A stretch of DNA of 64,000 nucleotides from a virus (lineage: Duplodnaviria > Caudoviricetes). Positions 27,009 to 57,820 of this stretch are shown here, piece by piece. The DNA is taken from the IMG/VR virus record IMGVR_UViG_3300033075_000639, positions 6,167 through 70,166 of that record; one strand, 5' to 3'. Below the pieces are notes generated by a model. That model saw only the letters and a list, made by a program, of their open reading frames with translations, did no database searches and was not told the DNA's origin. Position 1 is the stretch's first letter. Each line of letters opens with the position of its first letter. The translations under genes were made by a program, and so were the position numbers.

Positions 27009-27500
27009 TAAAAATTGCAAAACCGCGTTGTCAAATCGCAACGTTAGTGCGATTTCTGTCACTCCACCATCTTCATACGTTAGTTCTCCAAAATTCACTT
27101 CTGTTGCAAATGCACCCTTGATATCCCAGAGCTCCACAACTGTACCGACAGGATCCAACATTTTCAACTGAACATCTCTCTTATAGAAGTCAGCGTAACC
27201 TGCTCGACCAGAAACGCTTTCATAACATGTACGAACCCATTCCATGACCTGCTGAGCGCCTGATGGTGCAATTGGATCATGCAACGTAACAGCAATTGTG
27301 TTAAACGTTGTTTTACCAGCTAGATAACGTGTAGCATTGATAAACGGAACAACAACTTCTTCAGTTGTGATCGTTGGTCGTGCCGCTGTTTTAATGATAT
27401 AGGCGTCAACACCTTCGATCATAAGCACCCAACGATTTTTCCTCTTTGGTTCAAACTTATTCGGAATCATTGACGTAACGTCTAGTGTTTCTGCTGGCAT
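27009..27500 (-). CDS. Tail tube protein (T4 gp19-like)
   Basis: FEPKRKNRW, YLAGKT.F, LHDPIAPSGAQQVMEW, YKRDVQLKMLDPVG.VVE.W, LTLRFD.AVLQF followed by TTA (27009-27011; standard end 26958). Confidence 0.9.
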
Positions 27501-27611: not shown

Positions 27612-29333
27612 ATGGGTGCCATTCAAGGGAAAAAGCTAGAACCGGTTATTTGTCCACTGTGTAATGAATTTTCAACAAAAAGATTGACTAACTTTGAAAA
27701 ACATCTTAATGATGAGCATTCAACTACAGCACAAAAACTATGGGATAAATTGAATGGCGGGCCTCATAAATGTCAATGTCAATGTGGATCTGAAACACTT
27801 TGGAATGGATGGAAAACTGGCTATAGCAAATTCATTATTGGACATAATGCCAACGTTTATTCTTCTTACGCAAAAGAAGAGGCTGAACGAATAATTGAAC
27901 AACGATCTGCGGCACTTCGGGGTAGACCTACTTGGTCTAAGGGTCTTACTAAAGACACGGATGAAAGAGTAAAGAAGCGTGCCGAAGCAACAAGTATCGG
28001 TGTTAAAGAATCATTTGCAAATGGAAGAATTGCATGGTCTAAGGGTCTTACTAAAGACACAGATGAAAGAGTTGCTGCTGCTGCTGCAACGACCAAAGAA
28101 GCATATGCAACAGGAACAAGAACACAATGGCATGTTGGATTGTCTGCAAAAACAGATGAAAGAATTTCAAAAAAGAATTCTGAACTCAAACAAAAATATG
28201 CAAGTGGTGAATTGACGCAATGGCACGCGGGTAAAACAACCACAGATGATCCTAGAATTGCAAAATTCTGGGCAGCAAGAGATCCAGTATCAGAATATTC
28301 TCATATACGTTTCACCAATGAAGAAATTGAAAAACAACTTGAAAATAATGTTTCTCTTTCTCTAGAACGTATTGATTCATATCGTAATGATAGAAAACCT
28401 GCATTGCATGTTAGATGTAGAACGTGTAATTGGACATCAAAAGTTGCACTAATTTTTGCTCGAATAGATCGATGCCCTGTTTGTTCTCCCTCTGGTTCTA
28501 TTGGACAAAATCAAATTGCAGACTGGCTACAATCGCTAGGAATTAAAATTGGTAGAAATGTTGCTGGTATTATTGGTCGACAAGAACTAGACATTTATAG
28601 CTTGCAACACAAATTTGCAATTGAATTCAACGGTCTATATTTTCATAACGTTGCGGCCGGAAAAGATACTCATTATCATCAAACAAAAACAGAGCGTTGT
28701 CAAAAACTCGGCATAAGTTTGTTTCACGTTTTTGAAGATGAATGGTATGAAAAATCTGAAATAATCAAATCAATTATTTCTCATCGACTAAAGCTTAGTA
28801 ACAATAAGATTCACGCTAGAAAATGTTCAATTGTTGAACTTTCAATACAGGAACGTCGTAATTTCTTTACTGCAAACCATATTGATGGTGACACAAACGC
28901 TCTATTTTCTTATGGTCTTAAATACAATGAACAAATTGTTGCTGCGATAAGTGTTAGAAAACCGCTTCACAGTGAAGCAAATACACTTGAAATTGCACGT
29001 TGTTGTACGCTATTGAATACGTCAATAGCAGGATTTGTTAGTAAACTAATGAACATTGTTAAAAAAGAAACAATCACTAGAAACTTTAAAACACTTATAA
29101 CATATGTTGATACTCGATTTGGAGGTACCGGAATTGCATATGAAAATGCAGGTTTTACAAAAATTGGAACTACTCCTCCAAGATTTTGGTGGACTGATAA
29201 TCACACACGTTTCAATCGTTTCAAAATTCGTGCAGATTCTTCTCGAGGTCTAACAGAAGCTCAAGTCGCTGAAGAACATGGTGTTGTTCGAATCTATGGT
29301 TGCAATAATTCCGTGTATCGTCTAACACTATAA
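27612..29333 (+). CDS. Hef-like homing endonuclease (paralog), opposite strand
   Basis: CPLC..H..H, WSKGLTKDTDER x2, ELDIYSLQHKFAIEFNGLYFH, HVFEDEW, LEIARCC, TYVDTRFG. Confidence 0.75.
   Translation: MGAIQGKKLEPVICPLCNEFSTKRLTNFEKHLNDEHSTTAQKLWDKLNGGPHKCQCQCGSETLWNGWKTGYSKFIIGHNANVYSSYAKEEAERIIEQRSAALRGRPTWSKGLTKDTDERVKKRAEATSIGVKESFANGRIAWSKGLTKDTDERVAAAAATTKEAYATGTRTQWHVGLSAKTDERISKKNSELKQKYASGELTQWHAGKTTTDDPRIAKFWAARDPVSEYSHIRFTNEEIEKQLENNVSLSLERIDSYRNDRKPALHVRCRTCNWTSKVALIFARIDRCPVCSPSGSIGQNQIADWLQSLGIKIGRNVAGIIGRQELDIYSLQHKFAIEFNGLYFHNVAAGKDTHYHQTKTERCQKLGISLFHVFEDEWYEKSEIIKSIISHRLKLSNNKIHARKCSIVELSIQERRNFFTANHIDGDTNALFSYGLKYNEQIVAAISVRKPLHSEANTLEIARCCTLLNTSIAGFVSKLMNIVKKETITRNFKTLITYVDTRFGGTGIAYENAGFTKIGTTPPRFWWTDNHTRFNRFKIRADSSRGLTEAQVAEEHGVVRIYGCNNSVYRLTL
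27933..28072 (+). repeat. 38-nt direct repeat encoding WSKGLTKDTDER
   Basis: tggtctaagggtcttactaaagacac(g/a)gatgaaagagt at 27933 and 28035; 37/38 identical, period 102 nt. Confidence 0.9.
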
Positions 29334-29557: not shown

Positions 29558-29860
29558 TAAGTTTCGACGATGACCAGGATCCGACCAAGGATCTTGTGTT
29601 AGTTCAGGCATCTTGTCAAGTTGTGCCATGATTCTGTCAATATATGACAACAGAGCTTCTGCTTGCTTCGTAGCAGTTGGATCAGAAACTTGTTGATATA
29701 GATTACCCAAGTCCTTTTTTGCAAGATTTAGGTGTGTAACAAAATCCTTAAGAGGACCTTCAACTTTTGCAGCCTTCATTGAAGGTGCCTCTTCTAGCGC
29801 ATACTGTTCCTTAAGAACACTGCGAATCACTTGTCGTAGTTGTCGTTGAGTAATTTTCAT
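29558..29860 (-). CDS. Hypothetical protein (MKITQRQLRQVIRSVLKE motif)
   Basis: Ends AAC TTA, 2 nt before the next ATG (standard end 29543). Confidence 0.7.
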
Positions 29861-29878: not shown

Positions 29879-32800
29879 TAACAACGTTGTCGTAATGTTG
29901 TTCGAAACAACAAAGTCAAGAGAAACGAATTCGATAGACTTGGTTGGTTGAACAAAGATCTTACCACGAATTGTATTGTTTTCAATGTCTTGTTGAGTCG
30001 TTGTTGACGAGTCAATAATGACCTTGAACTTCTCTAGACCAGCCTGTGCTTGAACACGTTGTAGTCTTGGCGTTACAGCTGCCGTAAATCGAGCTAGTGT
30101 TGATGCTCTGTTAGGTTCGAAGATAATCGTTTGAGTGATATCTCTAACCTGACGACGTAGTTCAATTAGAAGTCTACGAACATTGACACGATCTAGAGCA
30201 CTTGCTGCTGCTTGAAGTGTCTTCTGTCCCCAAACAACTACACCACCCTTTGGATTAGTGCCACCCGTTGCTCCACCTGGGAATGCAACTAGTGGATTGA
30301 TGCTTACATCATATAGAGCGTCCATGTTTGTCTTGGACAATTGAACTCGTGCTTCAAGTGTCGTAGACAGAGCTCCTCGAGTCGTACCTGCAGGTGCAAA
30401 CCATGGGTGACCAATCTTATCGTTAAGTGCTAGTGCACCTAGAACTGCGACAGAAGGAGGTGTAACAAGGTTTGTCTTCGTATTTGGATCAGACATGATA
30501 ACGTCTGGGAAATACGCAGCTGCAAAGTTGTTATCGATTGCACGGTCTGCAAAATTCTGTGCAGTTAGTGCAACCGATGGTAGTTGACTGTCAAGTTCAA
30601 CCTCTGCAGCATTGTTATCAAGTTGTTCAATGTCCATGATGTATAGAGCATCGAATCGTTCTTTCACGGCATCAGCTGCAGCGTCAGTTACAATTGGATG
30701 TCTGATTCCTGGAATTGCTAGCAACTGAATGTCAGTGTTAACAACATTCTGCATGATTTGTAGAGCCTTTGCGTATGCTCTAACGTTTGGTCCTTGATCA
30801 CGCCCTCTTGTTGTTGAGTTCATATCTGCAGTTACTGCAGTATTGTTGATTTCAGCAGAATCTCTATCGAATAGATTGATTCCATCGAATCCACCCTGAA
30901 CAAAGAACGTAAACTTTGCAAATCGACGATTTGCTTGAATCAAGTCGTCAACTGTAAACAATCTTGTCTTGGCAGTGTCATTTGCAACTACTGCTGCAGC
31001 ACCTGCCCTGACGTATGTTGCAGAGTCCCATTCAGCAGGATCTGCTAGCGTTGTTGAAGCAGTTACAACTAGAATATTTTCTAGTGAGAACATGTTCGTA
31101 CAGAATCTGTCTGCATCAATGATACCATTCTCTGCTGTGTCAACATCGCCCGTATTGTCACCAACAACAAAGTTTTGCAACGTTGTTGAGAAGTTAGGGA
31201 AATACTTTGCAAATGCCTTTAGCGAATCATTCTTAAGCGTAGAAGCATTTGGCGTTGACAAACTTGTAACGTGTTCGAACTGAGTTCCCCAATAGAGTAG
31301 TGGGTTAACTTGAACTTTCTGACCAGATCCAGCAGTGATATTTGAACGCATTGGAAGTGGTGGAGTTACTGCACGCTTCACAAAGTTATCACTTAGTTGT
31401 GTTCCTGAAACACAAGTTAGAGGTGAAGAACCAGAAGTAACAAGGTGATCAATACCTCTGAAACCCATTGGAAGAGCTTCAGGATCGATATTCTGATTTT
31501 CGACACCGGTATCGACTTCAACTCTTACGTAGTTTGAACGTGCTGGGTAATTTCCGTCGACAACAACCTTTTGTGCAGGTTCTGCACGATCGAAGTCAAA
31601 GAATACGTGTGCATCTCCAATTGCCTTAGCAATATAGCGATCTGAATTTGGGTCTAGATTAACTCCTCTAAACTGTTCGAGAGGTTGTTGTGCGGCGTCT
31701 CTATCGTTCCAGTCACGTAGAACAACATCGAATGAACCATAAAGATTTGCTGGATCAGTTGATGGTGCTAGATTTTCGATTGAAACCTTGTATAGGGTCG
31801 AAACGCCGGCGCCTGCATCAATTGCATGCAATCTGAATAGATTTGCCGCAGCACCACCAAACTTTTGTGAGATGACCCAAGGCGACTTAGCGTGACTGAA
31901 TCTATCAGTGAACGCTTCATAATTTGGAACAACACTTGTTCCGGTGTTTCTAGAAGTTGATCCGGTCGTTAGGAATGCGGATGACTCCGTTCCTGTCTTT
32001 GCAACTCGTGATCCTCCAGCGCCTGAAACCGTGTGAATGATTCCAGATCCAGTAACAACTGCAGTTGAAGGATGAATGTCCCACGCAGCATACAAATAAT
32101 GTCCGGCTTCTTGAACCTTATAAGGATCAGTGTTCAGAACATTTGTAAAGTAATTTGGGCTTGTCATGTCGAATGATGCCGTAATTACGTTTGGATATAG
32201 TGGATCAGTTCCTCTATGACCATTTAGCAACATTACAAAGTCTTGTTTTGCAACTGATCCGTTTGACAGAACAACACCGCCAATTATGCTTCCGGAAGCA
32301 ACTGTATCATTTGCAACTAGTGTTGATGCTGGTTGCGCGTTAACACCCTCAGCAGAAGAAGACAGTCTGATTATAACACCAGAAGGTGCCATAACAACAC
32401 CACGAATGATTGGAACTGCAGTGTTAAGACCAGGTGTAACTGAACCTACACCTTGTAGACCAGCCGATGAAAACAATGTTGAACCAGCAGACTCAGACAT
32501 GAATGCACCCAAGAAGTAAGTTCTTCCTAGTGGCGCTCCAAGGGTTCCGGAATTTGCATAGGTATTACCAGCGAGCGCTCCATCAGATGAGCGTGGTTGT
32601 AGGGCGCCAACAGTAAAACCTGCTGATGTAACCGATCCACCGGTTTGTCCATCCGCGACTCTTGTTTTACCATCACCGGCACCAAGCACTCTCAAGTATG
32701 TAACTGCAGATGCATTTCTCAACCACTCAGTTACAGCGAGTGGACCGAACTTCTTTCCGTCTGTTTTTCCAAACTTTGCGTAAAAATCATCAATTGTTCC

Positions 32801-32944
32801 AACCGTTACAGGGACAAATGCGGGTCCCTTCAACGCAGTACCAACGATTCCCGCAGGAACACCTACTGGTTCCTGTTGAACAGGTCCCGAAAGATCAATT
32901 TCCTTTGCTGTAACGCCGGCGCTTCCAAATTTTAGCTGTGCCAT
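29879..32944 (-). CDS. Tail sheath protein 1 (T4 gp18-like, large insertions)
   Basis: SAGV...EIDLS, WFAPAG..RG, VVVWGQKTL...SALDRVNVRRLL, IIFEPN, IFVQPTKSIEF..LDF. Ends ACG TTG TTA (standard end 29864). Confidence 0.92.
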
Positions 32945-33014: not shown

Positions 33015-36000
33015 TCAGACGAATGCAATTCCGGAATTTGTAATGATAAAATCAACCGCAATATATTCAATAGTGCGCGTTGGAACAACAACAACTTTTC
33101 CGACCAATCTGTTAAGATCGACATCTTCTTGTGTGTTATTCGTTTCATTCATAATAACCTGGAAACCTTCTACACCCGCTTGGATCTGAATCATTCCTAG
33201 TTGTAGTACAGCGTCTGCAACAAACTTGTTGCGAACGTCTGGCGTGTTTTGCTCAAACACCATTTTACGAGCAATTTCAATAATGATTCGCTTTACTTCA
33301 AGTAGAAGTCTACGAACATTTACTCGATCAAGTGCAGACTTGTTAACTTTCAACGTCTTCTGTCCGTAGATAACGAATCCAAGGCGTGGGAAAGTTGCGA
33401 TTGGGTTAATTCGTGAATCATATAGACGATCACGATCACTTACGTTCAAGCGAACACCGACATTTGTTACAAAATCAAGCGCTGCTCTGTTGAAACCTGC
33501 AGGTGCAAACCACGGATATGCAACTTTATCATTGAATGCAAGAGCACCCATTGCTGCAACAGACGCTGGTACTTTGATACGGCGACGATTGGTTGCGTCA
33601 TCAATAACAACGTCTGGGTAGTATGTTCCAGCGTAATCATTATCAATTGCACGAGAATCAAACTGGCTTGCTGTTTGATCAATGCTTGGACGAGCCGTTG
33701 AATCATCATATAGACGATTTGCAGAATCATCGTAAGCAGCAATATCCATTACGTAATATGCCAATCCGTAATCTCTAACTTTACCCATTGCATACTCAGT
33801 AATAAAGCTTTCACGAATTCCTGGGATTGCTAGGATATTTGTGTTAACTGTCATTGGATCAGTCATAATATCGACAGCAGTCTTGTAGCTTGATACCGTA
33901 CTGTTAGATTGACCGGTACCAGAAGGATTAATTCCAAGACCTGGTGCTGTATATCCAACCGCGGCTCCACCGCCACTGTCAAATGATGCAGCTTTGTCAT
34001 TCAGACGTCGAGCATCTCTATCAAGGATGTTTGTTCCGTCCCAACCACCTGCCATGAACGTTGCAAACTTTGTGAATGGCGAAAACTTATTGAAGTCTGC
34101 GGCAGTTCCTTGTGCTAGCAGCGTTGCCAACGTAATTCTGCTACCGAGTGCTGTACTGTTAACAGTGTAATTCGAAAGATCTAGAACACCATCTCTAATG
34201 TATGCAGCTTCTTTCATATGATCATTTACTGATGACGTAAGATGCGTCAATGAACCATTTGAAAATGCAACCTTTGCTAGAGTAAACTTATCATTGTTTA
34301 GTATGTCTGCACCAGAACCTGACACTAGTGTATCAAGCTTGGAAATACCCAAGAACTTTGCGTAATTTTCTAGCAATGCATTCTTTTCATTCACAAGATT
34401 TGGATTTAGTGGCAGTGTGTTTCGTTCAAACTTAACACCCCAGTAAAACAAAGGCAACGTTAGTTCTGTTGTCCCTGGTTGACCCAACCATGCTGCTCCG
34501 ACCGGTACATCACCCTTCGTTACTTTTGTTCTGAAAGGAACAGGTGGCATGATAGAACCTGAAAGTGAAGATGCAACTGTCGGTCCCAACGAACCTGCTA
34601 GACGTGATTGTGCAGCTGTTGCGTGTGGCGTATCAGTTAGAGTGTCATTCGTCTTAAGAACTGGATGACCTCTGAATCCGAAAGGCAATGTCTTCTGTGG
34701 CACAAGAGCACGTTCGACAGCGTCAGCCATGACAATTCTTACATATGAAGATTTATTTTCATACTTGCCAAATGTTACAATTCTACGTTCAGAATCAGTT
34801 GTTGCATCAAAGTTGAAAGTAACTTTACGATCGCCAACTAGTTTAGCAACATAATTTGCAGCGTTTGGATTCAATGAACAGTTCGGAAACGACTCTAGAA
34901 CTAGAGGATTCACGTCTGTATCATTCCAATCACGAATTTGAACTGTAAAAGTTCCATATGGATTCGAATCATCTAGTGACGCTTTTAGATTCGTAATTGC
35001 AATCTTGTAGAGCGTATTTGCATATGTGCCATCATCTAGCGCTTCGAACTTGAACAAGTCATATTCTGTTGCACCAAATGGTTGCGAGATAAAGTATGTT
35101 GTTGATGGTGCACGGAATCGTGTATCAAACGCACCGTATGCTTTACGAGTTACTAGCGTTGTATCGCCACTATTTGGGCTGGTCTTGTTAGAACCCGAAA
35201 CAGCAGCTACTATTGTCGCAGTTGCTAGTTCATCATCAACAGGGAAATCAGCATAAACAAGATGTTGTTCAGAAACAAACTTGTCAGGATCAGTATTTAG
35301 GATCTTTCCAAAATAATCGGCACTTGATGGATTTAGCGATGCTGTGAATATCTTGACACCCGGGTTACCGTCTGTATTCCAGAACGTATTGCCTAGTGTT
35401 GAAGAGATCGCTAGCTTAAACTTTCCACTTACAAGCGTTGCAGCATCGATATTACTACCATTGAATGCGCCGACTGCAGAACCGTTACCGTCAAGAACCA
35501 TGACTCTTGACGAAGTTGGAGTCATAATCATGCCTCTAACAAGATTTACTGTAGATCCAGCGAATGAATCATTATCAGTAAACATTGGAATTCCATACGC
35601 TTCATTTGTTTGAAGAGTGTGTCGTGCCGTTAGGAATTGAACAACGCCTGTATGACGTCCCAAGTTATCATGTGTTGCGGTCGTTCCATCTAGATAAAAT
35701 CCAGCAGAAACAACTCGACCTGTCAATTCAGTTGTTGCAATGTCAGTTCCCGTCGTATTTGCGCCGGCGCCTAGAACACGCATATAAGTCAAAGAAGTCT
35801 TGTGCTTCAAAAATTCATTTACAGCATATGGTCCAAATCTTTTTGGATCTAGATTACCGAATGTTGCAACAAATTCGTCAAAATTTCCAACAGTTACTGG
35901 AACAAAAGCTGGACCTTTGTTAGCAGTTCCAATAACACCTGCTGGCGTACCCACAGGACCTTGTGGGGCTCTTGCCGAAAGGTCGATTTCACGTTGATAA

Positions 36001-36032
36001 AAATTTGGTGACCTAAAAGTCTGTTCAGGCAT
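33015..36032 (-). CDS. Tail sheath protein 2 (T4 gp18-like)
   Basis: SPN.Y.REIDLS, WFAPAGFNR, INPIATFP..GFVIYGQKTL...SALDRVNVRRLL, FEQN, VVPTRTIEYI.VDF. Confidence 0.92.
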   Translation of the reverse strand: MPEQTFRSPNFYQREIDLSARAPQGPVGTPAGVIGTANKGPAFVPVTVGNFDEFVATFGNLDPKRFGPYAVNEFLKHKTSLTYMRVLGAGANTTGTDIATTELTGRVVSAGFYLDGTTATHDNLGRHTGVVQFLTARHTLQTNEAYGIPMFTDNDSFAGSTVNLVRGMIMTPTSSRVMVLDGNGSAVGAFNGSNIDAATLVSGKFKLAISSTLGNTFWNTDGNPGVKIFTASLNPSSADYFGKILNTDPDKFVSEQHLVYADFPVDDELATATIVAAVSGSNKTSPNSGDTTLVTRKAYGAFDTRFRAPSTTYFISQPFGATEYDLFKFEALDDGTYANTLYKIAITNLKASLDDSNPYGTFTVQIRDWNDTDVNPLVLESFPNCSLNPNAANYVAKLVGDRKVTFNFDATTDSERRIVTFGKYENKSSYVRIVMADAVERALVPQKTLPFGFRGHPVLKTNDTLTDTPHATAAQSRLAGSLGPTVASSLSGSIMPPVPFRTKVTKGDVPVGAAWLGQPGTTELTLPLFYWGVKFERNTLPLNPNLVNEKNALLENYAKFLGISKLDTLVSGSGADILNNDKFTLAKVAFSNGSLTHLTSSVNDHMKEAAYIRDGVLDLSNYTVNSTALGSRITLATLLAQGTAADFNKFSPFTKFATFMAGGWDGTNILDRDARRLNDKAASFDSGGGAAVGYTAPGLGINPSGTGQSNSTVSSYKTAVDIMTDPMTVNTNILAIPGIRESFITEYAMGKVRDYGLAYYVMDIAAYDDSANRLYDDSTARPSIDQTASQFDSRAIDNDYAGTYYPDVVIDDATNRRRIKVPASVAAMGALAFNDKVAYPWFAPAGFNRAALDFVTNVGVRLNVSDRDRLYDSRINPIATFPRLGFVIYGQKTLKVNKSALDRVNVRRLLLEVKRIIIEIARKMVFEQNTPDVRNKFVADAVLQLGMIQIQAGVEGFQVIMNETNNTQEDVDLNRLVGKVVVVPTRTIEYIAVDFIITNSGIAFV

Positions 36033-39356: not shown

Positions 39357-39746
39357 ATGATGTACAAAGTTGGTGATGAAGTTGTCGTAATTATTTACGA
39401 TACTTTTGGTTATGGAAATATAAAAAATGATCGAATGCTTAAACTTCAAGTTATTGGCATTGACAGTTATGAATTGTCAATGAATTACTTGTGTTATGTG
39501 CCACACTATATGAATCATCCACATTCAAATAAACTTGATGATTATACTCTCAGGCGCTACAAAGTAGACAAAAAGTTTCTTGGAGAACAATGTGTATCGA
39601 TGTCAGTATATGAACCAGTAGCACGTCATATTCCTTGTGCTACCGGTGAAAAGTGTGATCGTTGTCAAGAATTTATTCCTGGTGGAATACGACAAGATTT
39701 CATTAAATTTCATTGTAGAAATTGCAGAGAAAATCCGTGGCGATTA
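39357..39746 (+). CDS. Hypothetical protein with C-terminal CxxC...CxxC zinc ribbon
   Basis: AGGA RBS. First in-frame TTA (39744-39746) follows CRNCRENPWR; the standard reading extends 114 nt further (to 39860), antisense into the convergent gene. Confidence 0.6.
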
Positions 39747-40330: not shown

Positions 40331-40337
40331 TAAGTAT
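40331..40337 (-). promoter_or_regulatory. Representative ATACTTA site of a recurrent (A/C)TANTTA upstream motif
   Basis: Also seen at 1893, 9909, 23403, 24578, 25216, 27543, 32967, 36070, 44964, 47992, 48436, 50935, 56432 and 57311, in each case upstream of a minus-strand gene or RNA. Confidence 0.55.
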
Positions 40338-40696
40338 TACTTAAGGCGCTGAATTGAAATTTTCACGTCTTCCCAAGTCTTTCTAGTTCTTGAAGAAATA
40401 AATTCAGTTAGCGTTATAGCATAATGCGCTATTGAATTTGTACGTACGTTACCAATAATTTTAGGAGGATTGATATCGTTATTAACACGTATCAATTTGG
40501 CCCAAACAACAACTTCATTAACTTCGTCAACAACACGTTTAGCACCAGAACGTCCAATCCTAACAATTCTATCGACTTGTTCTAGAACAAATGCCAATAC
40601 AGAATTATTACCAAACCCAGAAGTAACAAGGCCTGGTGAATTTTCATCATTTCGTGGTGCAGCCATACCACGCATAATAATCTGATTACGAAACAT
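40337..40696 (-). CDS. Hypothetical protein
   Basis: 119-aa ORF whose ATG is coupled to the upstream TTA (TTATG). Confidence 0.65.
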   Translation of the reverse strand: MFRNQIIMRGMAAPRNDENSPGLVTSGFGNNSVLAFVLEQVDRIVRIGRSGAKRVVDEVNEVVVWAKLIRVNNDINPPKIIGNVRTNSIAHYAITLTEFISSRTRKTWEDVKISIQRLK

Positions 40697-41175
40697 AATA
40701 CTTTCTGTCGATCAAATACTGCACCCATAGATGGTGCACCCATATCATCATAAAGATTATATGTAGCAACTACAGTTGAATTATCGTCCTTGTAAAAAAT
40801 CATCTGATTCGCAACAATCTTCCAACGACCATATTGAATATCATACAGTTGACCAATTGTTCCGGACATTTGTGTAACTTTTGTATCGATTGAATCGATT
40901 TTTGGATTATTTTCTTCTACGTTATATTGTTCGCTGGCATATGAGGCTGTGACAAATGCTGATCCTGTATCCCATAGAATTTGTCCTCGAAAATTGTCTG
41001 GAAACGAAATATATGCAGCGTAGATTCCCAACCCGGTTTGATAAACTCCAGTTGTAGTTCGTGCAGAAACAATCGATCCTGCCGTATCTAGAACTGTGTA
41101 TCCAACTCCCGATGAACCCGTAGCATATGCTCGAGACCTACCAAAATTGACATTTCGAAGTTGCTGCAATGTCAT
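40696..41175 (-). CDS. Hypothetical tail/fibre-associated protein
   Basis: Ends GAVFDRQKV then TTA (40696-40698), overlapping the next ATG. The standard reading runs to 40582, deep inside the next gene. Confidence 0.7.
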
Positions 41176-43229
41176 AATTCAAAATATCCATCAATAAATA
41201 CAGTGCCACGAAATTGCAATGATGCTGTTGCAGCGCCTGACCAACACTTATATCCTACGTGCAAAACCGTTTGTGACAAACATGTTATTGGTTGTTTGGG
41301 ATAAAATTCAACTGCTTCACCAGTAAAAACAGCACCGATCGCCGCGGCGGCGGCAACTGTCTGCAACCCAGACAATGGAATTCGAATTGCATTTGTTGCA
41401 GATGAAAGGTTCGCTGATGATGCCCCATGAACTACAAACCACTGCAAATTTGTTCTAGTACCTACAGCAGCGCCAAGAACAACAGGCAACTGAATTCGAA
41501 TTCCTGTCAAGTTAAAAACATATGGATTCGGAATTGTAAATCCAAATATGGTCAACATTGTTTCCGCACCTGCAGTTGCGTTAACAAGATATTCACCACC
41601 AAGTGTTGTATAAGGCGCTGTTGTATTTGATGGTGTTTGTGCTGCAGGTGCGGCCGCATTTGCAAGTTGACAATTTTGTGCGTATGTTGTTGGATTAACA
41701 GAACCATATCGATTGACGCCAGACATCTGATCTGCCCATGGTTTATTATGTGTCGTATCAAGCATATGAACAATATGTTCTGATATCAACAACTTAGCAG
41801 CTGTACCACCGCCAGTGGCATCAACATACAATCGAGCATATGATGGCAAATGTGACAACAAAAACAAATTTTGATTTGTTGATAGTGCAGGAATAATCAT
41901 ATCAACAAGTGGTGCCGCAGTCGTTGCAGACGACATTACAAAACGTACATAATCATCATGAATTGTAACATCATACATGTAATATGCAGATGTAGAAATA
42001 ACGCCTTGTGCAAGAACTTGCACAACAGTTTCAGTTCCGCCGACAGCAACCACTGCAGCCAATGTTCCATCAACTCTCCATCTGAAACAACAACCATTAC
42101 TAATATTTGCAGTAGCACTATTAATACTACTAAATCCCATCTCTGATACAATGTGTTGACCAGCTGTATTACTAGTCAAACGAGCTTTAAATCTCAAACT
42201 TATAGGTGTTCGAGGCAATTTCTGAAATTGCTTAATTGTTGTAATTATGCTATATGAACTAGCTGTTGTTAGTGAACCATTGTTCAACGTAATAATACAT
42301 GATGATTGTGCAATGGTTTGTGAATTAGTTAGTTGTCGAATCCATGGATTAATTGTTGATCCTTCAATTGCATCTTGAAACATTATCATTTCAGACGTTG
42401 TTCGAAGACTATTTCCGTCAACACGCAACTGTCGAATAATTCCACCACCAACAGACTGTTCAACTCCGCCAACCATTGCAGTAGTAGGAGGTGATACAGA
42501 CCCAGACATAACAGCGTAAAGAAGTGATGGATCAAGTGCCATCGACCCCCTTACTGTACAGTTTGCAGTACCAGAAGTATATGCTGAAACACGTATTCTA
42601 ACTTGACCGGTACCAGCATTAAGAATAATTGCTTGAGTTGTTGCAGTGTTACTAGCAGTATATTGAATTGCATTCTTCTTTTGTCCCGTAACAGCATCAT
42701 CAAAATACGTTCCAACCCAAGTCGTGCCGCCGTCAACAGACACTTCTGCAACCAAAACGCCAATTAGCGTACCAGCAGCAAGTTGCATTGACACACCATT
42801 CAAACCTGCCATGTTCAATGTAACTGCAGCGTTTAGAGCACCAAGCGCGCCGGTTGAAACATTATCCGGAACTGAAGATGAAACAATAGTGTTTGGTGAA
42901 ACTGAAACAACAAGTGCTGGATCTGTTGATAGCGCAGCCGTTGATGCCGCTTTCCCTCGAAGGGAAATCATGTTTGTTCCGTCACTTACACCCATTAGCA
43001 AAGCGGAAGTGGGAACAGCGGCGCCAGTTGATCCCTGAGAGGCTAGCGATACAGTGCCAGAAATTAGTTGGGCGCCCTGTGTATACACAGAAATTGACCC
43101 AGAAACCAACTGAGCGCCTTGCGTGAAGACGCCAATTGAACCTGACACTTGAACTGCTAGCGGATTTGTATTGACGCCAATTGGATTCCCATTGACGTCA
43201 AATTGTGTTATTGATGGTGTTAGAGGCAT
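41175..43229 (-). CDS. Tail fibre / receptor-binding-like protein
   Basis: 685 aa, Ser/Gly/Thr/Ala-rich, beta-rich C-terminal region; N-terminus shared with the adjacent gene. Ends GAA TTA TGA. Confidence 0.65.
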
Positions 43230-43249: not shown

Positions 43250-44263
43250 TAACGTTAGTTCTGTAACCCGCGCAGAACCGTTTGCAGTATCCCAAATACC
43301 ATCGATGATCCCAGTATATCCAAATGGAACTTCGTAGTAACCACGGGCTGTAATTTGTGCCGAGAAGCTTGTTGATGATGCTGTTGCACCAAGTTTAATG
43401 CTTAGCGTTTTGTTTCCATCGTTAAAGATCGTTGCACCCTTGCGTGCTGAGTTAGCCGCAAGAATTGTTACGTTCGTTGCTGATGCCGCAACTGAAGATT
43501 GCGTTCCCGTTGTTGATGCAGCAGGTGTAACAGAAACTGCACCAGCAGTATCAGTTCGTAGAGTTCTAACAAATCCTGTAACGTCAGTTCCTGCAACAAT
43601 GACAGGAGCAGCGTTTGCTGCTGTTGATCCTGACAACGTCGTGCCGACAACAATTTGTCGACCTGATGAATCCATCAACATTCCCCGAACGAATCCTGAT
43701 ACGTCTGCGCCAGCCATCAATACAGGATTTGCAGTAGCTGTCGTTCCGGAAGCATTATTACCAACAACAGTAATAGTCCCGGGGATCGTAGTGTTAACAT
43801 TTAGTCGACCGTTAAAATCAGTCGAAAGTGCTCGAGTAAGATTTCCACCATCAACGCCACCCATCAACACAGGTGCGAATGTTGCAGCCGAACCGGAAGC
43901 AATAACACCTGCAACAGCTGCTGGACTTTCAAGTGTAACAGATCCTGAAACAAATAGTTTTCCGGACGTATCTGTTCTAAGACCTCTAAGAATTCCATTA
44001 GTGTCTGTACCACCTACAAGGGTTGGAAAACCGAGAGCAGTAGAACCAGATTGAACGGTGTTCAAAATTGAAATAGTGCCTGAAATTAGTTGCGCACCTT
44101 GAGTATAAACTGACACAGAACCAGAAATTAGCTGAGCTCCATGTGTATACACGTTCGTACCCGCCAAAGAGCCGGATACTTGAACTGCTAGTGGATTGGT
44201 GTTAACACCAATTGAATTTCCGTTAACGTCAATAAGAATTGCTGCTGGATTTGTAATCGTCAT
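43250..44263 (-). CDS. Tail fibre-like protein with internal repeats
   Basis: Four approximate repeats of SGS.A...PV..GG.D..G..R.L.TD..G. Ends ACG TTA TAG. Confidence 0.65.
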
Positions 44264-45865: not shown

Positions 45866-46468
45866 TAAAATATTAAACTTTCCAAGAACAATAGGTTCAC
45901 CGACTATTGGTTTAGACATTCTCCATTGAGGATTAGACTTGACAAATTCATCAACTGCAATCTTTACACCACACTTCTTACTCTTTTTACGTTTAGTTGC
46001 AGTTTTTACACCAGAATATTCTGGGCGCTCTGAATACCACATATCTTTCTCCGACCATTTACCATCATAATCGTCTATAACAATAATAGAATGATCATAT
46101 GTAATGTCATTCAACGTATTTAGTTCTTTACTTACTGTATGATAGTTGTGATCACCATCGATCAAAATCAAATCAAATTTCAATCCTTCTTTTTGAAAAA
46201 CTGGCAATACTTCTAGACTTGAATTTTCAACTATTGATATAGATTGTTTGTCTTTAACGGGTGTTAGTCCTTCAAGGGTCATAAGAACATGTTGTTGAAG
46301 TAGTACGTCCAATCCAATCAATCTAAAATTTTCTTTATTCGAAATCAAGTGTGCCGCAATAGGAATAAATGTAACACCTCGATCTATTCCAATTTCTAGA
46401 ACTGATGGTGCATGTGGAAGATCACTTATAAACTTCTTCATTAGCGGAATGTAACCATGATATGCCAT
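45866..46468 (-). CDS. Class I SAM-dependent methyltransferase
   Basis: VLEIGIDRG.T, FDLILIDGDH.Y, IIVIDDY. Ends ATT TTA, 2 nt before the endolysin ATG (standard end 45860). Confidence 0.8.
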
Positions 46469-46737
46469 TATGAAATCCTACGTAGATAAATTTTCTTTTC
46501 GTTGTATTGATTAACATAAATTACGTGATATTTCTCACTACGTTTAACAACTCGATATCGAGCCAAAATAATCCTACGAAGGAGACGTTTTGTTGAATTT
46601 TTTTCACCCTTCTCAGTCGTAGTAATAACTGTTATAATCGTTCTAATTTCTTTTGTGTAAATTCCCTCACCTTGATTCAAAAAATAAACTCTCGTATCGG
46701 TTACTCGTTCTTCCGGTTTGTCGGTGAGATTTGTCAT
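46468..46737 (-). CDS. Hypothetical protein
   Basis: 89-aa ORF coupled to neighbours on both sides (TAATG at its end). Confidence 0.5.
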   Translation of the reverse strand: MTNLTDKPEERVTDTRVYFLNQGEGIYTKEIRTIITVITTTEKGEKNSTKRLLRRIILARYRVVKRSEKYHVIYVNQYNEKKIYLRRIS

Positions 46738-46961
46738 AACATTCCTGATATCAATGCTTGAACTGCAGTTTCTACACGTGCTCTGAGATCAGCTGGAAGC
46801 GCAGACAACAGGACATATGCCTCTGATTTTATCGGTGCAGCGTAGGTGCCGCCTGTTGTATACATATCAGCATTCTGAACAGCAACACGTAGAACAAGTG
46901 GAGCAGGTCCCTTTTTGTCTGCCGCGATTGGTTTATACAAATCAACTTTTTGAAATTCCAT
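46737..46961 (-). CDS. Hypothetical protein
   Basis: Ends ATG TTA TGA with a TTATG overlap. Confidence 0.6.
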
Positions 46962-46963
46962 TA

Positions 46964-47143
46964 TAATCCTTTCAAGATCTGTCGGCCTTCATTTAGGGCT
47001 GCATTAGAAACATTCAAACGTTCCATAAGTTCTGAATAAGTTTTACGCAATGTCGCATGAAAACCAACAAAAGGTTCGGGCTCATTCAATTTACGTTCAA
47101 TATCTCTAATTTGTTCTGCTAGTAGTTCAACTGATGCTGACAT
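46964..47143 (-). CDS. Small coiled-coil hypothetical protein
   Basis: Ends GGA TTA TAA. Confidence 0.55.
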
Positions 47144-47246: not shown

Positions 47247-47263
47247 ACCGAACAACTTCATGT

Positions 47264-47986
47264 TTATTTAATTGCATCTTTTTTCAAACGTTTCAAAGTT
47301 GAATATGAAACATTAAACTCAATTTGCAAATCAATCAACCTATCGCCTTGTGATATACGAGCTATAATTTTATCATATGGTATTTTACTATTGCTCAAAT
47401 TTTTCAAAGATTGTCTTACTTTTTCTTTTGTTTCTGGTGTGTGAATTCTGACGTGCGCACATTTACTCGAACATGTTTTTCTAGTACGATACTTTCTATT
47501 TGTAACTAGAACCTCAAATATATTTCCACACAAACATGTTCTTTTTTCTATTTTTTCTTCTCTAATGCCAAGTCTTTTTTCAATCACAATTCGCCAACAT
47601 TTTTTTAGTTTTTCGCACGTTTCTTTAGTTGCAACCCTTCCAACACAGTGTGTATTTCCTTTAAGGACGTCAGAAAGTTTTTTACGTGTTTTATTTGTAA
47701 CGCCACGACCACCAGGCTCAATGTTATAACCAAATTCTCGATTACAAGAATCATAATATGATATCCAATAAATTTCACGATCATCAACTTGATCATCAGA
47801 ACATTCTTCTATAACTTCAAAAGAAAAATTTTCTACACCATGTTTTTGAATGGATCGATAAAAAGGATGATCGATTTGCTTTTTTGTATTTGAAAAATGT
47901 CCAGAGCAGCGACGCCAAGGATTACAGGATTGTCCTATATAAACTTTATGATTAACTAGATTACGAATCAAGTAGACGTATCTCAT
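47264..47986 (-). CDS. GIY-YIG homing endonuclease (Seg-like)
   Basis: YVYLIRNLVNHKVYIGQS..P.RR...H, RE.YWI..Y, GYNI..GG, NUMOD3-like segment, CxC..CS..C. Confidence 0.85.
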   Translation of the reverse strand: MRYVYLIRNLVNHKVYIGQSCNPWRRCSGHFSNTKKQIDHPFYRSIQKHGVENFSFEVIEECSDDQVDDREIYWISYYDSCNREFGYNIEPGGRGVTNKTRKKLSDVLKGNTHCVGRVATKETCEKLKKCWRIVIEKRLGIREEKIEKRTCLCGNIFEVLVTNRKYRTRKTCSSKCAHVRIHTPETKEKVRQSLKNLSNSKIPYDKIIARISQGDRLIDLQIEFNVSYSTLKRLKKDAIK

Positions 47987-48018
47987 ACAATTAAATATAA
48001 CATACGTCTACTTGATTC
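47965..48018 (-). promoter_or_regulatory. 17-bp hairpin covering the GIY-YIG translation start
   Basis: gaatcaagtagacgtat (47965-47981) and atacgtctacttgattc (48002-48018) are exact reverse complements. The 20-nt loop contains the ATG and an ATATTTA motif. Confidence 0.75.
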
Positions 48019-48026
48019 ACAAATTC

Positions 48027-48391
48027 TGGAAGCGTCGGGTACTGCCCCCGCGTCCACAACAAATCCTTCGCTAACTTCTTCACAAGCTTGACCCATCTAT
48101 ATGCTCGACCTCAGGGTGGGTCTATCGATGGTAATTTAACGTCTTTCATCTCAATGACGACACTACGTTTTACGTCCAGTGTTTTGACGTTTTTGAACAG
48201 AGATCGCTCCACTCACCGCCTAATTTTCTGTTTGCAGGTTATTAGGAAACCCATTCCTCATGCCACTAGGGCGAGAGGAGCCACGCTGTTGTCGTTAGCA
48301 TGTATACGTCACATGAGTTTTTAACTGGACTCTCGTGCACCAGTGCTTGCAGTTATCGCTATCATCACCGTGTCGAAACTATTTCGCCCCC
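48027..48391 (-). ncRNA. ssrA: tmRNA (one-piece)
   Basis: 5' GGGGGCGAAATAGTTTCGAC and 3' GACGCGGGGGCAGTACCCGACGCTTCCA form a 7-bp acceptor stem with G3.U70. Tag frame 48299-48258 encodes ANDNSVAPLALVA-TGA. CCA not encoded. Confidence 0.92.
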
Positions 48392-48449: not shown

Positions 48450-48941
48450 TAACTTCTTATGTTTTCCACGCCACTTTCTATTTTTAGGTAGTTGTGGTGG
48501 AGGTGGTGCTGGACGATGTTTACGTGGATACGATTGAGTAGGATCGTCCTTAAGGTCCTCCTCATCAAGTGTCAGAAAATTTGGAAGCGACGCTAGTTTA
48601 GATTCAGCAACAGTTACTTCAGTTTCCTTTACGTCTGACTTATCTTTTGACCATTCAACTCCTCCAAAACTAACCGTGTTAACAGGTGCAGTCTTTAGCG
48701 ATTCAATCTTGGCTTTTTGATCATTTTCCCACTCATTAAAAAGTCTATCAGTAATTTCTGTATGTGTGGCATCGCGCTTGTCGCTTTCTTCTTTACGAAG
48801 AAGTGCAGAAATAAGACATGAATGCATACGATCAACAACTATACGTACATTCATTCGATCTTGTATGTTAACCTGACCGTCAAGTTTAACCAATGTTGAA
48901 TACAGTGCCATAAATTCTGGTGGTGTTAGATTCAAACGCAT
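48450..48941 (-). CDS. Hypothetical protein, basic Pro-rich C-terminus
   Basis: Likely start ATG 48941; ends AAG AAG TTA (standard end 48435). Confidence 0.6.
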
Positions 48942-49545: not shown

Positions 49546-49830
49546 TAACCAGGTCTTGCCAGCAACTGCGTAATGCTTCTGTAGCAAATTGTAGAGCGTA
49601 CGTGCCTCCGAACCCGAGAGGGTAATCGTGGTTCCCTCAGGAAGATCAACAAACAATCGAGTGCGATTCACATTCTTTGCGGTTGAAGCCGCGAAGTTCG
49701 TGGTATACGCATCCCGACGAGCAGTTTCCGTACGTAGCTTACCCACTCGATCAGTTCGGGTACGAATAATCGCATTGCGGTTCGTAGAATCAGAGCGAAA
49801 CTTCTTCTTGGACATTGTGGTCTTCTTCAT
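49546..49830 (-). CDS. Small basic hypothetical protein
   Basis: Likely start ATG 49830. Ends AGKTW TTA; the standard-code tail after it contains two more in-frame TTA. Confidence 0.55.
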
Positions 49831-50441: not shown

Positions 50442-50912
50442 TAATGCGTTGTTACCAGCTAGCGTCATAGAACCTGATCCGCCAGTAATACACCAGTGAA
50501 GACCGTCAGACACTAGAATAATAGAACCACCTGCATTCATTTTAACAGTGCCACCGCCCAAAGCAGATGGAGGAGCACCGCCCATAGAACCCGACATCTT
50601 AACAAATAGTGCACGACCATTTGTTGGTGCTGATCCTGACAATAGCCAGTCAAATGAACCATTATCAGTTGTTCCTGCAAAAATCAATGATGCACCTGGG
50701 AATGACGCTGGTGATGGGACAGAGCCCGTAAAATAGCCTGCGCCAGAAGAACCGGTACAAGGAACATAGAAAAAACCAGCAGTTGAAATTGTAATTGAAC
50801 CTGAGCTAGACAATGTCTGTGCTGAATATGTGTGTTGCTTGGCCTGTGCTGTACCTGCAACAATCATATCTGATGAACCATCATCTACAAAACCACCACG
50901 TGTATATGCCAT
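50442..50912 (-). CDS. SGS-rich virion structural protein
   Basis: GGAG RBS; ends GCA TTA TAA. Confidence 0.65.
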
Positions 50913-51005: not shown

Positions 51006-52430
51006 TCAGATGTGCAACTTAAAAATAAGTGAACCGCAGCCCCAAATTTTCGAAACTCCTGCGGCAATTGCAACCTCTTTTTCAGACTGAGTTGCTGTTG
51101 CACGAAATTTGAATCGATCATATCGATATCGATTATCCGTATACCAATAGTCAATACCAGTCTCACCACACGGAATAAAACCACACGCAAGATAACCATG
51201 TCCGTCACCAAAACGTCGATCTACATAAGTCATTATTGTTGAAATTGATTTCTTTTTTGAATATTCAATTGCTTGTTTCATTAGTCGATTTAGTCCACCT
51301 GAAATATGATAACCTGGTCGTGTTGCAAAACGAGCTACTTCAAGACAATTTTCATATTTGCTTTGTCGTGGTTTGCGTAGACTTATAGCGGCAAGCACTT
51401 CGCCATTGCTATTAATCAACCCGTAACATATACTTGATGGTGTATATCCAGAAATATGTGAAGAATCAAAGAACAATCGTTGTTCTGAACTAGACAATTC
51501 TGATATTTTCAATTCTCTAGCACCAATCTTATATATCGAGACGCCCAATCGATGATCAATAATCGATTCGCATATTGTCCTTTTGTCTCTCCATTCATCA
51601 TCAAAAAATTGAAATAGTTTGATGTGTTTTTCATTTGCAAGATTCAGTTTGTTCAAGCTATAACTTTTGTCTGTTTCACCTCGAGGTGACCCATCTGAGT
51701 GCCAATACAAGCCATGACATTCAAATCCAATATTCTTTGATGGAACATATACATCAATTTCTTTTGGAGAAATTGCTGATCGATCACCAGATATAGTGTC
51801 AGAACACTTCGACTTTACATAATTGAAAACTTCAAGTTCCCAATTTGATTTCGAAACAGGATGACAAATATAACAACGAGAACCTCGTTCAAAAGCCTGG
51901 AGTGTTTTTGGTTGAACTGTTTTACAAACAACGCATTTGAACTGAAGATATTGAAGCTGCCTAGATGAATACTCTTCAAGAGGTGTTATCAATTCAAATT
52001 CATTTGAACGTTCTAGAAGTCTATTTTCTAGATCAACTGATTGCAATGATTTGGCTTTAGATATTTGATTTTTTGTTTGTATTGAATGTGTTTTGCCAAA
52101 AAATGGATTGCCAACACCAGACATCTGTATAGACTGAAGTTTAATTCGTTCATCAGTCTCTTTTGTTAGACCAACATTCCATGCCGTTGCTTTTCCGCCA
52201 ATTGTTCCACCTTCCATCATTGCTAGTCGAGCATGATCTTTACAGTATTTTTTAAATGTATATGAAACGTATCGTACCGGTCCAGAACATTGGGCACAAG
52301 TAGGAAGTACACCATTATGAAATTGATTAATTGTATATTGTTCAGAAGACAATGAATGAACAGATCGTAGATGATCAGAAAATCGTTTGAGATTATCATT
52401 TTCAAATTCATTGCAAATAAGACATTTCAT
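51006..52430 (-). CDS. Hef-like homing endonuclease (third paralog)
   Basis: CLIC..H..H, WNVGLTKETDER, NPFFGKTH, EIDVYVPSKNIGFECHGLYWHS, FFDDEW, LEVARFA, TYVDRRFG. Likely start ATG 52430. Confidence 0.75.
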   Translation of the reverse strand: MKCLICNEFENDNLKRFSDHLRSVHSLSSEQYTINQFHNGVLPTCAQCSGPVRYVSYTFKKYCKDHARLAMMEGGTIGGKATAWNVGLTKETDERIKLQSIQMSGVGNPFFGKTHSIQTKNQISKAKSLQSVDLENRLLERSNEFELITPLEEYSSRQLQYLQFKCVVCKTVQPKTLQAFERGSRCYICHPVSKSNWELEVFNYVKSKCSDTISGDRSAISPKEIDVYVPSKNIGFECHGLYWHSDGSPRGETDKSYSLNKLNLANEKHIKLFQFFDDEWRDKRTICESIIDHRLGVSIYKIGARELKISELSSSEQRLFFDSSHISGYTPSSICYGLINSNGEVLAAISLRKPRQSKYENCLEVARFATRPGYHISGGLNRLMKQAIEYSKKKSISTIMTYVDRRFGDGHGYLACGFIPCGETGIDYWYTDNRYRYDRFKFRATATQSEKEVAIAAGVSKIWGCGSLIFKLHI

Positions 52431-52539: not shown

Positions 52540-54435
52540 TAAGATTACATTCATATCTAGGACTGTTACAGTTCCGAAGAAGTCTGTACGGACCATCTTC
52601 TTACCGTATCGGGTCATCACACCCTTTCGAGGAGTGAAATCTTCAGGTGCGAAGATCGTAGGAGTCACGATAAGCGGAACGTATGGACTGTATACGTATC
52701 CCGTCTCTAGGTAAGATCCGCCCTTGTACCCAACAAGAATCTTGTTGCGTGGGAAGTATGGATCCTTGTAAACAGTGAATCGGTTTGAAACAGTTCCGAT
52801 CGCCTCTGCACCAATGGTGAATGGCGTTGAAACTTGTCCTTCGCCGTCCATTGAGAACTTTGGCTTGTAGAGAACAGAGCTCTCTAGGATCGTGCAAACA
52901 TCTGGGCCAGTAACCATGAAGTTAGCTGATCCGCGTAGCGTCTTACGGTGGATGGTGTTTGCCACATCGATAACAGTCTCGATTAGGGTCTCATACCATT
53001 CACGAACAGTTCCTGTGAACTGTGGTCCGATGCTCAAGCTTGAAGCAAGCGTCTGACGATCACCGGTGACCTTGTTGACAAAACGTCCTGGTGAACGGCT
53101 CCAGAAGTAGTTAGCTCCGTTTGCCTGTGTCACTAGATCGTTTAGAATCTCGCGGTCGATTTCTAGAGCAATCTGCTCTGAAAGAATGCTGGTCAACTCA
53201 ACTTCTGCGTCCATTGAGTGATATGCATTCAAGTCCTGTGCAAGCTCTGGTGACCAACGAGCACGTAGCTTTCGTGTCACTGCAGTGATTGCAATTGCCT
53301 CGATCTTGATATCAATCTCTGGAATTGCAGGCGATGGGGTTGATCCAAAGTCTGTTTCGAAAGAAGGAACCGTTAGGGTTGCTCCTGATCCGCTGTCGAC
53401 GGTTAGACCGTCCGTGATTGCCATTGAAACCTTGGTTACCGCAGTACCCATGGTTGGAACTGAACCACCGTTAGATAGTCGTAGAACCATCTGGATGTGC
53501 GTTCCGTTTAGAGGATTCAATGTAAACACTGAACCGGTCCAATCGCCACGCTTGTTTAGACGACGTAGGTTGTAAACTCCCGTTCCTGACTGGTAGCTTG
53601 AGCCCCATGCAGTTACGCTGTTTGCAGCCGTGAAGCCGAAGACAGAGATTTGCTCTGGTGCTAGGAAGTCACCCTTTGGAATACCGGCCTGAATTGCAGC
53701 AACCGTTAGGTGCAAGAATGCAACGTCAAGTGTACCATCGCTTAGGTCGACTTCAATCTGTGGATCGAAGTTCAACATTCTTGCGTTGGTTCCGGAAAAG
53801 TCCGTTAGTGCAGCAACGGTTCCAGCAACAGTCCATGCATTTGATGCACCGGTCCAAGCACCGCAATCTGCGTTCGATCCAGAGATCGTTAGAGATGCCG
53901 AGTGAACCTTTGAATAACCAACGTTAACGAGGTCATACATACCACCAGCAACTTGTGAACCTGACTGAACTCCCTTACCAACTGGGTTGTTATAGATCGA
54001 CTGTCCACGCTGATATGTGTCGTAGGTTGCTGAGTTGCTTAGACCCAAACCTGCGTCACCACCAACGTTTGATCCGTAGGTGTAATCTAGGTAGAAGATT
54101 AGACCGGATGGTAGTGACATTGGCTGAATTGAAACGAGTTCATTTGCAACCAAACCACCGAAGACTCTACGAACGATTGGAAATGCAATGTTCGAGAAAC
54201 CCTGAATCTGTCCGGAAGAGGTAACTGCGCCGCCTCCAGTCGACAATGAACCTGCTTCCTTTAGAACCTGTGCAGCCTGGTTCTCAAGTAGCTGGGACAT
54301 CATCTCACGCTTATTACCTTCAAGGCCGCGAAGCAAGCCGGTTCGGCTCCACTTCTCGGTGAGGCGAGCTCGCTCAGCACCAACGTGCTTTTCGCGAATT
54401 CCTTGTGCTAGTTGATCTAGTGAAAAAAACTTCAT
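52540..54435 (-). CDS. Major capsid protein (T4 gp23-like)
   Basis: KW..TGLL.GL, PIVRRVF..L.ANELVS.QPM..PSGLIFYLD, RKLRARWSPELAQDL.AYHS.DAE.EL, EIDREI, GYVYSPYVPL, P.KG.MTRYG. Start ATG 54435 after GGAG; ends ATC TTA (standard end 52528). Confidence 0.96.
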
Positions 54436-57277: not shown

Positions 57278-57332
57278 TTTTGCACGTTCTCCTGTTATAT
57301 GTGCTACGTTTAAATAGGTTGTCGACAAACAA

Positions 57333-57818: not shown

Positions 57819-57820
57819 AA

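Follow-up and report, generated by a model that had tools for sequence, protein, structure and literature searches.

TTA as a probable fourth stop codon, and TTATG as a probable stop-start overlap, in a small clade of T4-like jumbo phages

Phages with an altered code are known among the crAss-like, Lak and other stop-recoded phages, in which TAG or TGA is read as an amino acid. The labyrinthulean (Thraustochytrium) mitochondrial code is catalogued as NCBI table 23. In these mitochondria, as in peDinoflagellate plastids, UUA is a stop codon; in two peDinoflagellate species, more than half of the coding sequences of the plastid end in UUA or UCA, the organelles in which UUA is a stop encode no cognate tRNA (anticodon UAA), and the cause was traced to a Ser204 substitution in the organellar release factor RF2 (PMC12574857). 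Both UUA and UUG are stops in the mitochondria of Marsupiomonadales and Pseudoscourfieldia (Pycnococcus), linked to a changed mtRF1a (PMC12574857, PMC6821328). UCA, and possibly UCG, is a stop in green-algal mitochondria (Sphaeropleales), with release-factor changes that also accompany the UUR reassignment of Pycnococcus mitochondria (PMC6821328). The sense-to-stop reassignments described in these sources are all from organelles (PMC6821328, PMC12574857), and a full-text literature search, with subscription journals outside its coverage, returned no phage or free-living bacterium in which UUA or any other sense codon is reported to be a stop. Here, we describe a window of 64,000 bases (bases 6167-70166 of the 70,166-base virus record IMGVR_UViG_3300033075_000639, hereafter G000) from a phage in which TTA ends genes of all classes, as it does in at least three contigs, and we focus on a TTATG junction at 40694-40698. 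Comparison with homologues shows that the predicted functional proteins end at TTA. It is very likely that a small clade of T4-like jumbo phages has reassigned UUA from leucine to stop, and that TTA thereby joins TAA, TGA and the seldom-used TAG as a fourth stop codon.

The window comes from a T4-like jumbo phage fragment with a GC content of 39.6%; CheckV estimates that G000 represents 21% of the genome, and the full phage genome probably exceeds 300 kb. Two relatives were used throughout, namely G001 (also L003; 104 kb, GC 45%, estimated 29% complete) and G002, a standard-code sister phage (309 kb, GC 55.6%, 91% complete). Coordinates are in window numbering unless labelled as genome (G000 outside the window) or as those of another contig. 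Gene ends were compared with homologous open reading frames (ORFs) from about 160 related loci and G002, and the end offset is given in residues from the TTA, 0 being the last residue before it. A first codon-by-codon alignment test was dropped because it was confounded by out-of-frame and antisense ORFs aligning between relatives, and the end tests were confined to real frames: homologue ends, reciprocal-best orthologues, codon-level views and aligned TTA sites.

The minus strand reads AAA GTA TTA TG from 40698 to 40694, with the TTA in frame with the gene starting at 41175, and the A of this TTA (40696) doubles as the A of the next gene's ATG (40694-40696). Under the standard bacterial code (table 11), the ORF would end only at 40582, 115 nt into the next gene, and re-reading the sequence bears out both the TTATG and the readthrough overlap reported in the initial annotation. 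The TTA at 40696-40698 would terminate a conserved 159-aa structural-region protein (40699-41175, minus strand) that matched no PHROG or Pfam family, and the 197-aa table-11 ORF is probably a readthrough artefact. The downstream 119-aa gene (40337-40696, minus strand) begins with the shared ATG; its stop codon is TAA, and its G002 homologue ends at the same place. A search of a large protein collection with the 197-aa product yielded 288 homologues. Among the best 120, residue 159, the last before the TTA, is the exact end in 108; four others are one residue longer, four are alignments that stop early, and the four nearest (66-85% identical) run on with a leucine followed by unrelated tails. 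Such tails are as expected if gene callers read through the TTA in further members of the clade. The 38-codon readthrough tail (40582-40695) itself contains three more TTA.

The orthologous junction was read in 16 related loci. It is GTT TTA TGG in two of them (G001 and L273), TGATG in four (L276, L283, L284 and L285) and TAATG in two (L278 and L279), and the remaining eight have a standard stop at this place or one codon beyond. The one-base overlap of terminator and start codon is thus conserved in relatives as a stop-start overlap. As the orthologous junctions are TGATG or TAATG, the TTATG of this phage probably substitutes for one of these, which agrees with the initial proposal that TTA is a stop and TTATG an overlap of the TAATG/TGATG type. 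If TTA is a stop, the TTATG junctions join TAATG and TGATG as stop-start overlaps.

TTA is also missing from the interior of genes. The whole contig has 27 ORFs of 250 aa or more, and none of the 979 leucine codons in their mid-part is TTA, whereas TTA makes up 16-40% of leucines in related loci with a GC content of 0.385-0.415. The triplet is not avoided as such, since the other two frames of the same long ORFs contain 579 and 216 TTA. The 53 minus-strand table-11 ORFs hold 42 in-frame TTA, mostly located at the ORF ends, against 487 TTG, 449 CTT and 445 CTA. When each sense codon is tried as a fourth stop, TTA retains the most ORF mass (96.2%), followed by CGG (90.3%). Treating TTA as an additional stop lowers the coding fraction of this contig from 0.967 under table 11 to 0.945; in three low-GC relatives, the corresponding change is from 0.894 to 0.336 in L006, from 0.925 to 0.337 in L008 and from 0.932 to 0.298 in L033. 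TTA is absent from conserved interior positions as well: at 979 aligned sites bearing TTA in sixteen low-GC relatives, this phage has TTG (20%), CTA (17%), CTT (16%), CTC (3%), CTG (3%) or a non-leucine codon (41%), and never TTA. Mid-ORF leucines are encoded by CTA (29%) and TTG (32%) more often than in relatives of similar GC content (3-15% and 9-25%, respectively), and each of these inflated codons is one transition away from TTA. One in-frame TTA aligned to leucine, upstream of the gene at 57032-57277, was rejected as an interior case: it lies in an untranslated leader, and the gene starts at the ATG at 57277, behind AGGAG. Relatives seem to conserve this leader (57278-57330, CCTATTTAAACGTAGCACATATAACAGGAGAAC), to judge from the alignment of its spurious translation in some of them, and it may comprise a late-promoter-like element followed by a Shine-Dalgarno site.

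With TTA included as a stop, G000 has 70 non-nested minus-strand genes, of which 28 end in TTA, 22 in TAA, 18 in TGA and two in TAG. For most of the 25 TTA-ended genes with homologues, the median end offset is 0, an agreement as close as that of genes with TAA or TGA, and the single outlier (+24) is an antisense ORF. No homologue follows the table-11 extension in any of the 12 minus-strand genes that have a homologue and an extension of at least five residues. Where the reciprocal-best G002 orthologue has the same C-terminal end, the TTA faces a standard stop in 20 out of 20 cases (15 TGA, four TAA and one TAG); TTA therefore stands on the stop position of the homologues. G000 and G001 share nine ends with TTA in both. 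TTA ends nine of the 22 replication-side genes and 19 of the 48 structural-side genes, and this similar use indicates that TTA is not a timed switch.

The major capsid gene, of gp23-like type (52543-54435, minus strand; Pfam and PHROGs matches), has its TTA terminator at 52540-52542: the end offset is 0 in all 60 listed of the 75 homologue matches, and where G002 ends in aac gtc atc TGA, G000 has aat gta atc TTA and G001 has aat gtg att TTA. An RNA library yields contigs of the capsid region, the presence of which is not proof of transcription; they halt 22 nt short of the capsid TTA and are uninformative on termination. The ribonucleotide reductase large subunit (1902-4376, minus strand) ends at a TTA at 1899-1901, beyond which table 11 adds 20 residues; its G002 orthologue stops at the same codon (TGA), and the PHROG profile matches up to residue 824 of 825. 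The 995-aa gene at 11806-14790 (TTA at 11803-11805, minus strand; 24 residues added by table 11) corresponds to ctc gat aag TGA in G002, with an offset of 0, and to TAA in G001. For the 94-aa gene at 49549-49830 (TTA at 49546-49548, minus strand), the 27 residues added by table 11 include three further TTA, and 39 homologues end between -1 and +6, with 19 exactly at 0 and not one at +27. The tail tube gene (27012-27500, minus strand; PHROG tail tube) gains 17 residues under table 11 beyond its TTA (27009-27011), a codon that is TAA in G002 (offset 0) and TGA in G001. The other minus-strand TTA terminators lie between 298 and 57031 at 298-300, 6946-6948, 8707-8709, 29331-29333, 29879-29881, 43250-43252, 46964-46966, 48450-48452, 50442-50444 and 57029-57031. 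On the plus strand, the gene at 39357-39743 (129 aa; 167 aa under table 11) has its probable TTA terminator at 39744-39746, and its one homologue ends four residues past the TTA, not 38. Outside the window, at genome 3610-3858 (minus strand), only a TTA parts an 82-aa gene from the gene that follows it in frame; table 11 fuses the pair, with a continuation of 151 codons, and G002 has two separate ORFs.

All 11 sites named in the initial annotation, that at 40694 included, match its description when read on the minus strand. The TTATG junctions at 1024, 7386, 41175 and 46737 are all TTATGA. That at 41175-41177 ends the 684-aa gene 41178-43229 and overlaps the start of the 159-aa gene; that at 46737-46739 ends the 74-aa gene 46740-46961, for which the TTA marks the end of 19 of 20 homologues and the G002 junction is TGATG, its stop occupying the position of the TTA; and those at 7386-7388 and 1024-1026 end the UvsX/RecA-like recombinase gene (7389-8603) and the gene 1027-1413, the latter without a homologue in the local set of related loci. 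The remaining junction, GGG TTA TTA TG, is a double TTA (57818-57823) that ends the peptide deformylase gene (57824-58321, minus strand), with the second TTA overlapping the ATG of the gene 57336-57818. Relative to the first TTA, deformylase homologues end at offsets of -13 to 0 and none ends at the table-11 position (+13), and the same codon is TAA in G002. The warning that TTATGA is also compatible with an ordinary ATGA overlap is fair in general, as it applies to four of the six TTATG junctions, and it leaves 1024 and 7386 ambiguous; it does not hold for 40694 and 57818, which are not TTATGA, nor for 46737, given its homologue ends.

At five other minus-strand terminators, the TTA precedes the next ATG by a short gap: 10 nt at 1424-1426, 4 nt at 14795-14797 (the same codon is TGA in G001 and G002), 9 nt at 22679-22681 (TTA in G001, TGA in G002), 2 nt at 29558-29560 and 2 nt at 45866-45868 (aat att TAG in G002, at the same codon). 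The gaps between TTA and the next ATG (-1 in five cases, +2 in four, then 4, 9, 10 and larger values) resemble those after TAA and TGA. Purine-rich stretches just upstream of the junctions, such as AAGGAG before 7386, could be Shine-Dalgarno-like sites.

The trait is shared by independent contigs. In G001, TTA ends 34 of the 90 main-strand genes, and several same-frame neighbours are parted only by a TTA, with 41 of 48 homologues ending at the TTA for one such pair. The separate record L273, which came from the search with the 159-aa protein and not from the capsid search, has the same TTATG junction, and TTA ends nine of its 15 genes. Among the capsid relatives (80 viral, 80 metagenome and eight genome-contig loci), none shows the trait except L003, which is G001. 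A quick major capsid protein tree places G000 and G001 as sisters (SH-aLRT 96), with G002 and L006 next; in L006 (GC 37%), TTA accounts for 15% of leucines. As amino-acid identity averages about 60% for all pairs of G000, G001 and G002, the trait is probably old within its small clade. A contig from run X1 matches 18.1 kb of the window with five differences and may itself be the source, and a strain diverged by about 5% is present in runs from two other studies.

By analogy with the organelles, UUA would be recognised by a class-I release factor whose codon range has widened. Its gene would belong to the host or lie in the ~80% of the phage genome beyond the fragment, and release would also require that no tRNA-Leu(UAA) competes for UUA in the infected cell. 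The TTA-ended replication genes give only a hint that the cell already reads UUA as a stop at the start of infection. It is rather unlikely that the change is imposed by the phage and not inherited from the host, in which case UUA would become a stop during infection through a factor encoded elsewhere in the phage genome, beyond the fragment; the candidate would be a widened release factor, possibly together with removal of the host tRNA-Leu(UAA). Such a system would be a host-takeover weapon, as UUA-rich host messages would be cut short and TTA-free phage genes read normally. The alternative, a free-living bacterial lineage that itself reads UUA as a stop, would be about equally new.

G002 was also searched for a possible reader of UUA. 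It has 49 tRNA genes, in arrays (L088-L103) at about 228.8, 255-266 and 286-290 kb; the leucine anticodons are CAG, TAG and CAA, not TAA, and suppressor-type tRNAs comprise two with anticodon CTA and one with TTA. It also encodes a transfer-messenger RNA (tmRNA) with the tag ANDNGVAPLALAA. Within a tRNA array lies an RF1-like gene without the first domain (L101:532-1507, G002 260532-261507, minus strand), with GGQ present and RVPPTE as its recognition stretch; its coding sequence occupies two frames that meet at AGGGGT CTT TGA G, a sequence that copies the prfB-type programmed +1 frameshift site. None of the 80 viral-contig loci fetched with this release factor, including G002's own, combines a low GC content with near-absence of TTA, and by pattern match RVPPTE is present in 54 of these 80, again counting G002's own. 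L188 (GC 0.467, TTA in four of 97 leucines) was rejected as a further member, as it has TTA inside ORFs. A second G002 protein, encoded beside the tRNA array, matched only itself when used as a query. The genes found in G000 and G001 and not in G002 are an endolysin-like peptidase, two proteins of no family and homing endonucleases, none of which is linked to translation.

Several observations weigh against the reassignment of UUA to stop. No tRNA gene was found by aragorn in the window or in the whole contigs G000 and G001, which are 21% and 29% complete, and neither contig encodes an RF-1 domain of a release factor. G002, which is as close to G000 as G001 is, uses TTA rarely and as a sense codon, for example at codon 375 of a 577-aa ORF, where 14 homologues have I, V or L; and the sister relation of G000 and G001 comes from one quick single-gene tree. 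For the gene at 57032-57277, 11 homologues, including that of G002, are one residue longer opposite the TTA (V in G002). Finally, a standard stop directly follows the TTA in 11 of the 28 TTA-ended genes of G000, so that the TTA could be the last leucine codon there, compared with 0/22 behind TAA and 3/18 behind TGA. Four of these 11 are the TGA of an overlapping ATGA; in the others, the adjacent stop could safeguard against a leaky terminator or be left from an old tandem pair, or the TTA could be a last leucine codon. A possible old tandem pair is TGA TGA in G002 where G000 has TTA TAG.

The excess of standard stops behind TTA would also be understandable if UUA were unassigned and not a true stop, so that, with no tRNA to read it, ribosomes would stall and rescue by tmRNA, ArfB-like factors or drop-off would free the peptide; the adjacent stops might then back up a poor terminator. 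The absence of TTA from gene interiors and its presence at gene ends fit this explanation equally well, and the sister phage has both a tmRNA and the short release-factor-like gene. Nevertheless, we regard it as improbable. The major capsid gene, the most highly expressed, and about 40% of all genes end in TTA, and stalling or tagging there should be costly; 17 of the 28 TTA ends have no adjacent standard stop, and in G001 only two of 38 TTA ends have one. T at position +4 is typical of release-factor signals, and it follows TTA (17/28) as it follows TAA (9/22) and TGA (9/18). A frameshift reading of TTA was dropped, as the mostly T at +4 gives no stop in the +1 frame. Still less probable is a leaky or conditional TTA, read by a special tRNA at some stage to produce extended isoforms or fusions, for which one could cite the same-frame neighbours parted only by TTA, with continuations of 151 codons in G000 (outside the window) and 170-1081 codons in G001. 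The tails are not conserved, as seen from the unrelated sequences after the leucine in the four nearest homologues of the 159-aa protein, and the tail of the latter would have to be read through three further TTA. Extensions would also cross the starts of the next genes, replication and structural genes use TTA alike, and there is no tRNA in the fragments.

Under the standard code, TTA would be an extremely avoided leucine codon and the terminal TTAs chance or mutational leftovers, or else the pattern would be an assembly or sequencing artefact. The tandem TTA-stop cases and the TTATGA junctions can be read in this way, but the explanation is hardly credible for the gene set as a whole: it would have to accommodate the lack of TTA among 979 mid-ORF leucines at this GC content, the match of TTA to the orthologous stop in every comparable G002 orthologue and the 108 of 120 homologues that end before the TTA of the 159-aa gene. 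An artefact is in addition difficult to reconcile with the trait in the independent contigs G001 and L273, with the near-identical contig of run X1 and with the diverged strain in the runs of other studies. Regulation of the bldA type, known from Streptomyces, in which rare TTA codons in a few regulatory genes of a GC-rich genome are read by a regulated tRNA-Leu(UAA), was ruled out, as the phage has 39.6% GC and carries TTA at the ends of 40% of its genes, including capsid and replication genes, and not in their interior.

The gene content of the window was assigned from Pfam and PHROGs profile matches; nearly all genes lie on the minus strand, and only two on the plus strand. A gp20-like portal gene (61013-63616) contains an intein (Pfam Intein_splicing, residues 93-453) with the HNH endonuclease domain HNH_3. 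Two adjoining tail-sheath paralogues were found, of 1021 aa (29879-32944, ending in TTA) and 1005 aa (33015-36032, ending in TGA). Other named genes encode a head protease, a tape-measure-like protein, a DnaB-like helicase, a single-strand-binding protein, a dUTPase and several homing endonucleases. Three large homing-endonuclease-like genes are paralogous (PHROG 3339/559), at 25226-26881 (minus), 27612-29333 (plus, one of the two plus-strand genes) and 51006-52430 (minus), and all three are without an in-frame TTA; the third has Pfam matches to a GNAT acetyltransferase and NUMOD3, and the other two a weak Mom-like stretch in PHROGs. The GIY-YIG homing endonuclease gene at 47264-47986 is probably a mobile insertion, because a contig of run X3, from the strain diverged by about 5%, joins 47258 to 48027 and skips 768 nt, which is exactly that gene.

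If UUA is indeed a stop in this phage clade, such a change is possible in a virus that depends on bacterial ribosomes, and the question arises whether the host or a phage-borne factor reads UUA. Table-11 gene calls for these phages would then contain false C-terminal tails, false overlaps and fused genes, and false tails are probably already visible in the four nearest database homologues of the 159-aa protein. The clade also supplies test objects in the TTA-ended capsid gene and the TTATG junctions.

The junction at 40694-40698 resembles the TAATG, TGATG and ATGA arrangements of translational coupling in the one-base overlap of terminator and ATG; here the terminator is TTA and the coupling is putative. 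Bacteria with unassigned codons, such as Micrococcus luteus (UUA) and Mycoplasma capricolum (CGG), have an extreme GC or AT content and simply do not use the codon. As in the phage, a sense codon has vanished from their genes; it has no reader in these bacteria, which may hold for the phage as well. In contrast, the codon does not mark gene ends there, and at 39.6% GC TTA would be expected to be common in the phage. With the stop-recoded phages, this lineage shares a code that departs from table 11, so that standard gene callers give wrong proteins, and the large tRNA sets, suppressor tRNAs and release-factor gene of those phages are also found in its relative G002. The direction of the change is the opposite, from sense to stop and not from stop to sense, and the three standard stops still end genes: no in-frame standard stop occurs within the conserved genes, which are intact under table 11, and the ends of genes that use TAA, TGA or TAG agree with those of their homologues. 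The mitochondria of Marsupiomonadales, Pseudoscourfieldia and Sphaeropleales likewise present a sense-to-stop reassignment recognised by the C-terminal ends of homologues. In the first two groups, the change extends to UUG as well as UUA, whereas the phage keeps TTG as a main leucine codon (487 in the 53 ORFs). The labyrinthulean and peDinoflagellate organelles are similar in the change of the same codon from leucine to stop, in its absence from gene interiors, in its use at many gene ends and in their bacterial-type translation. They differ in having only a few dozen genes and a cause traced to RF2, whereas the phage must be translated in a bacterial cell.

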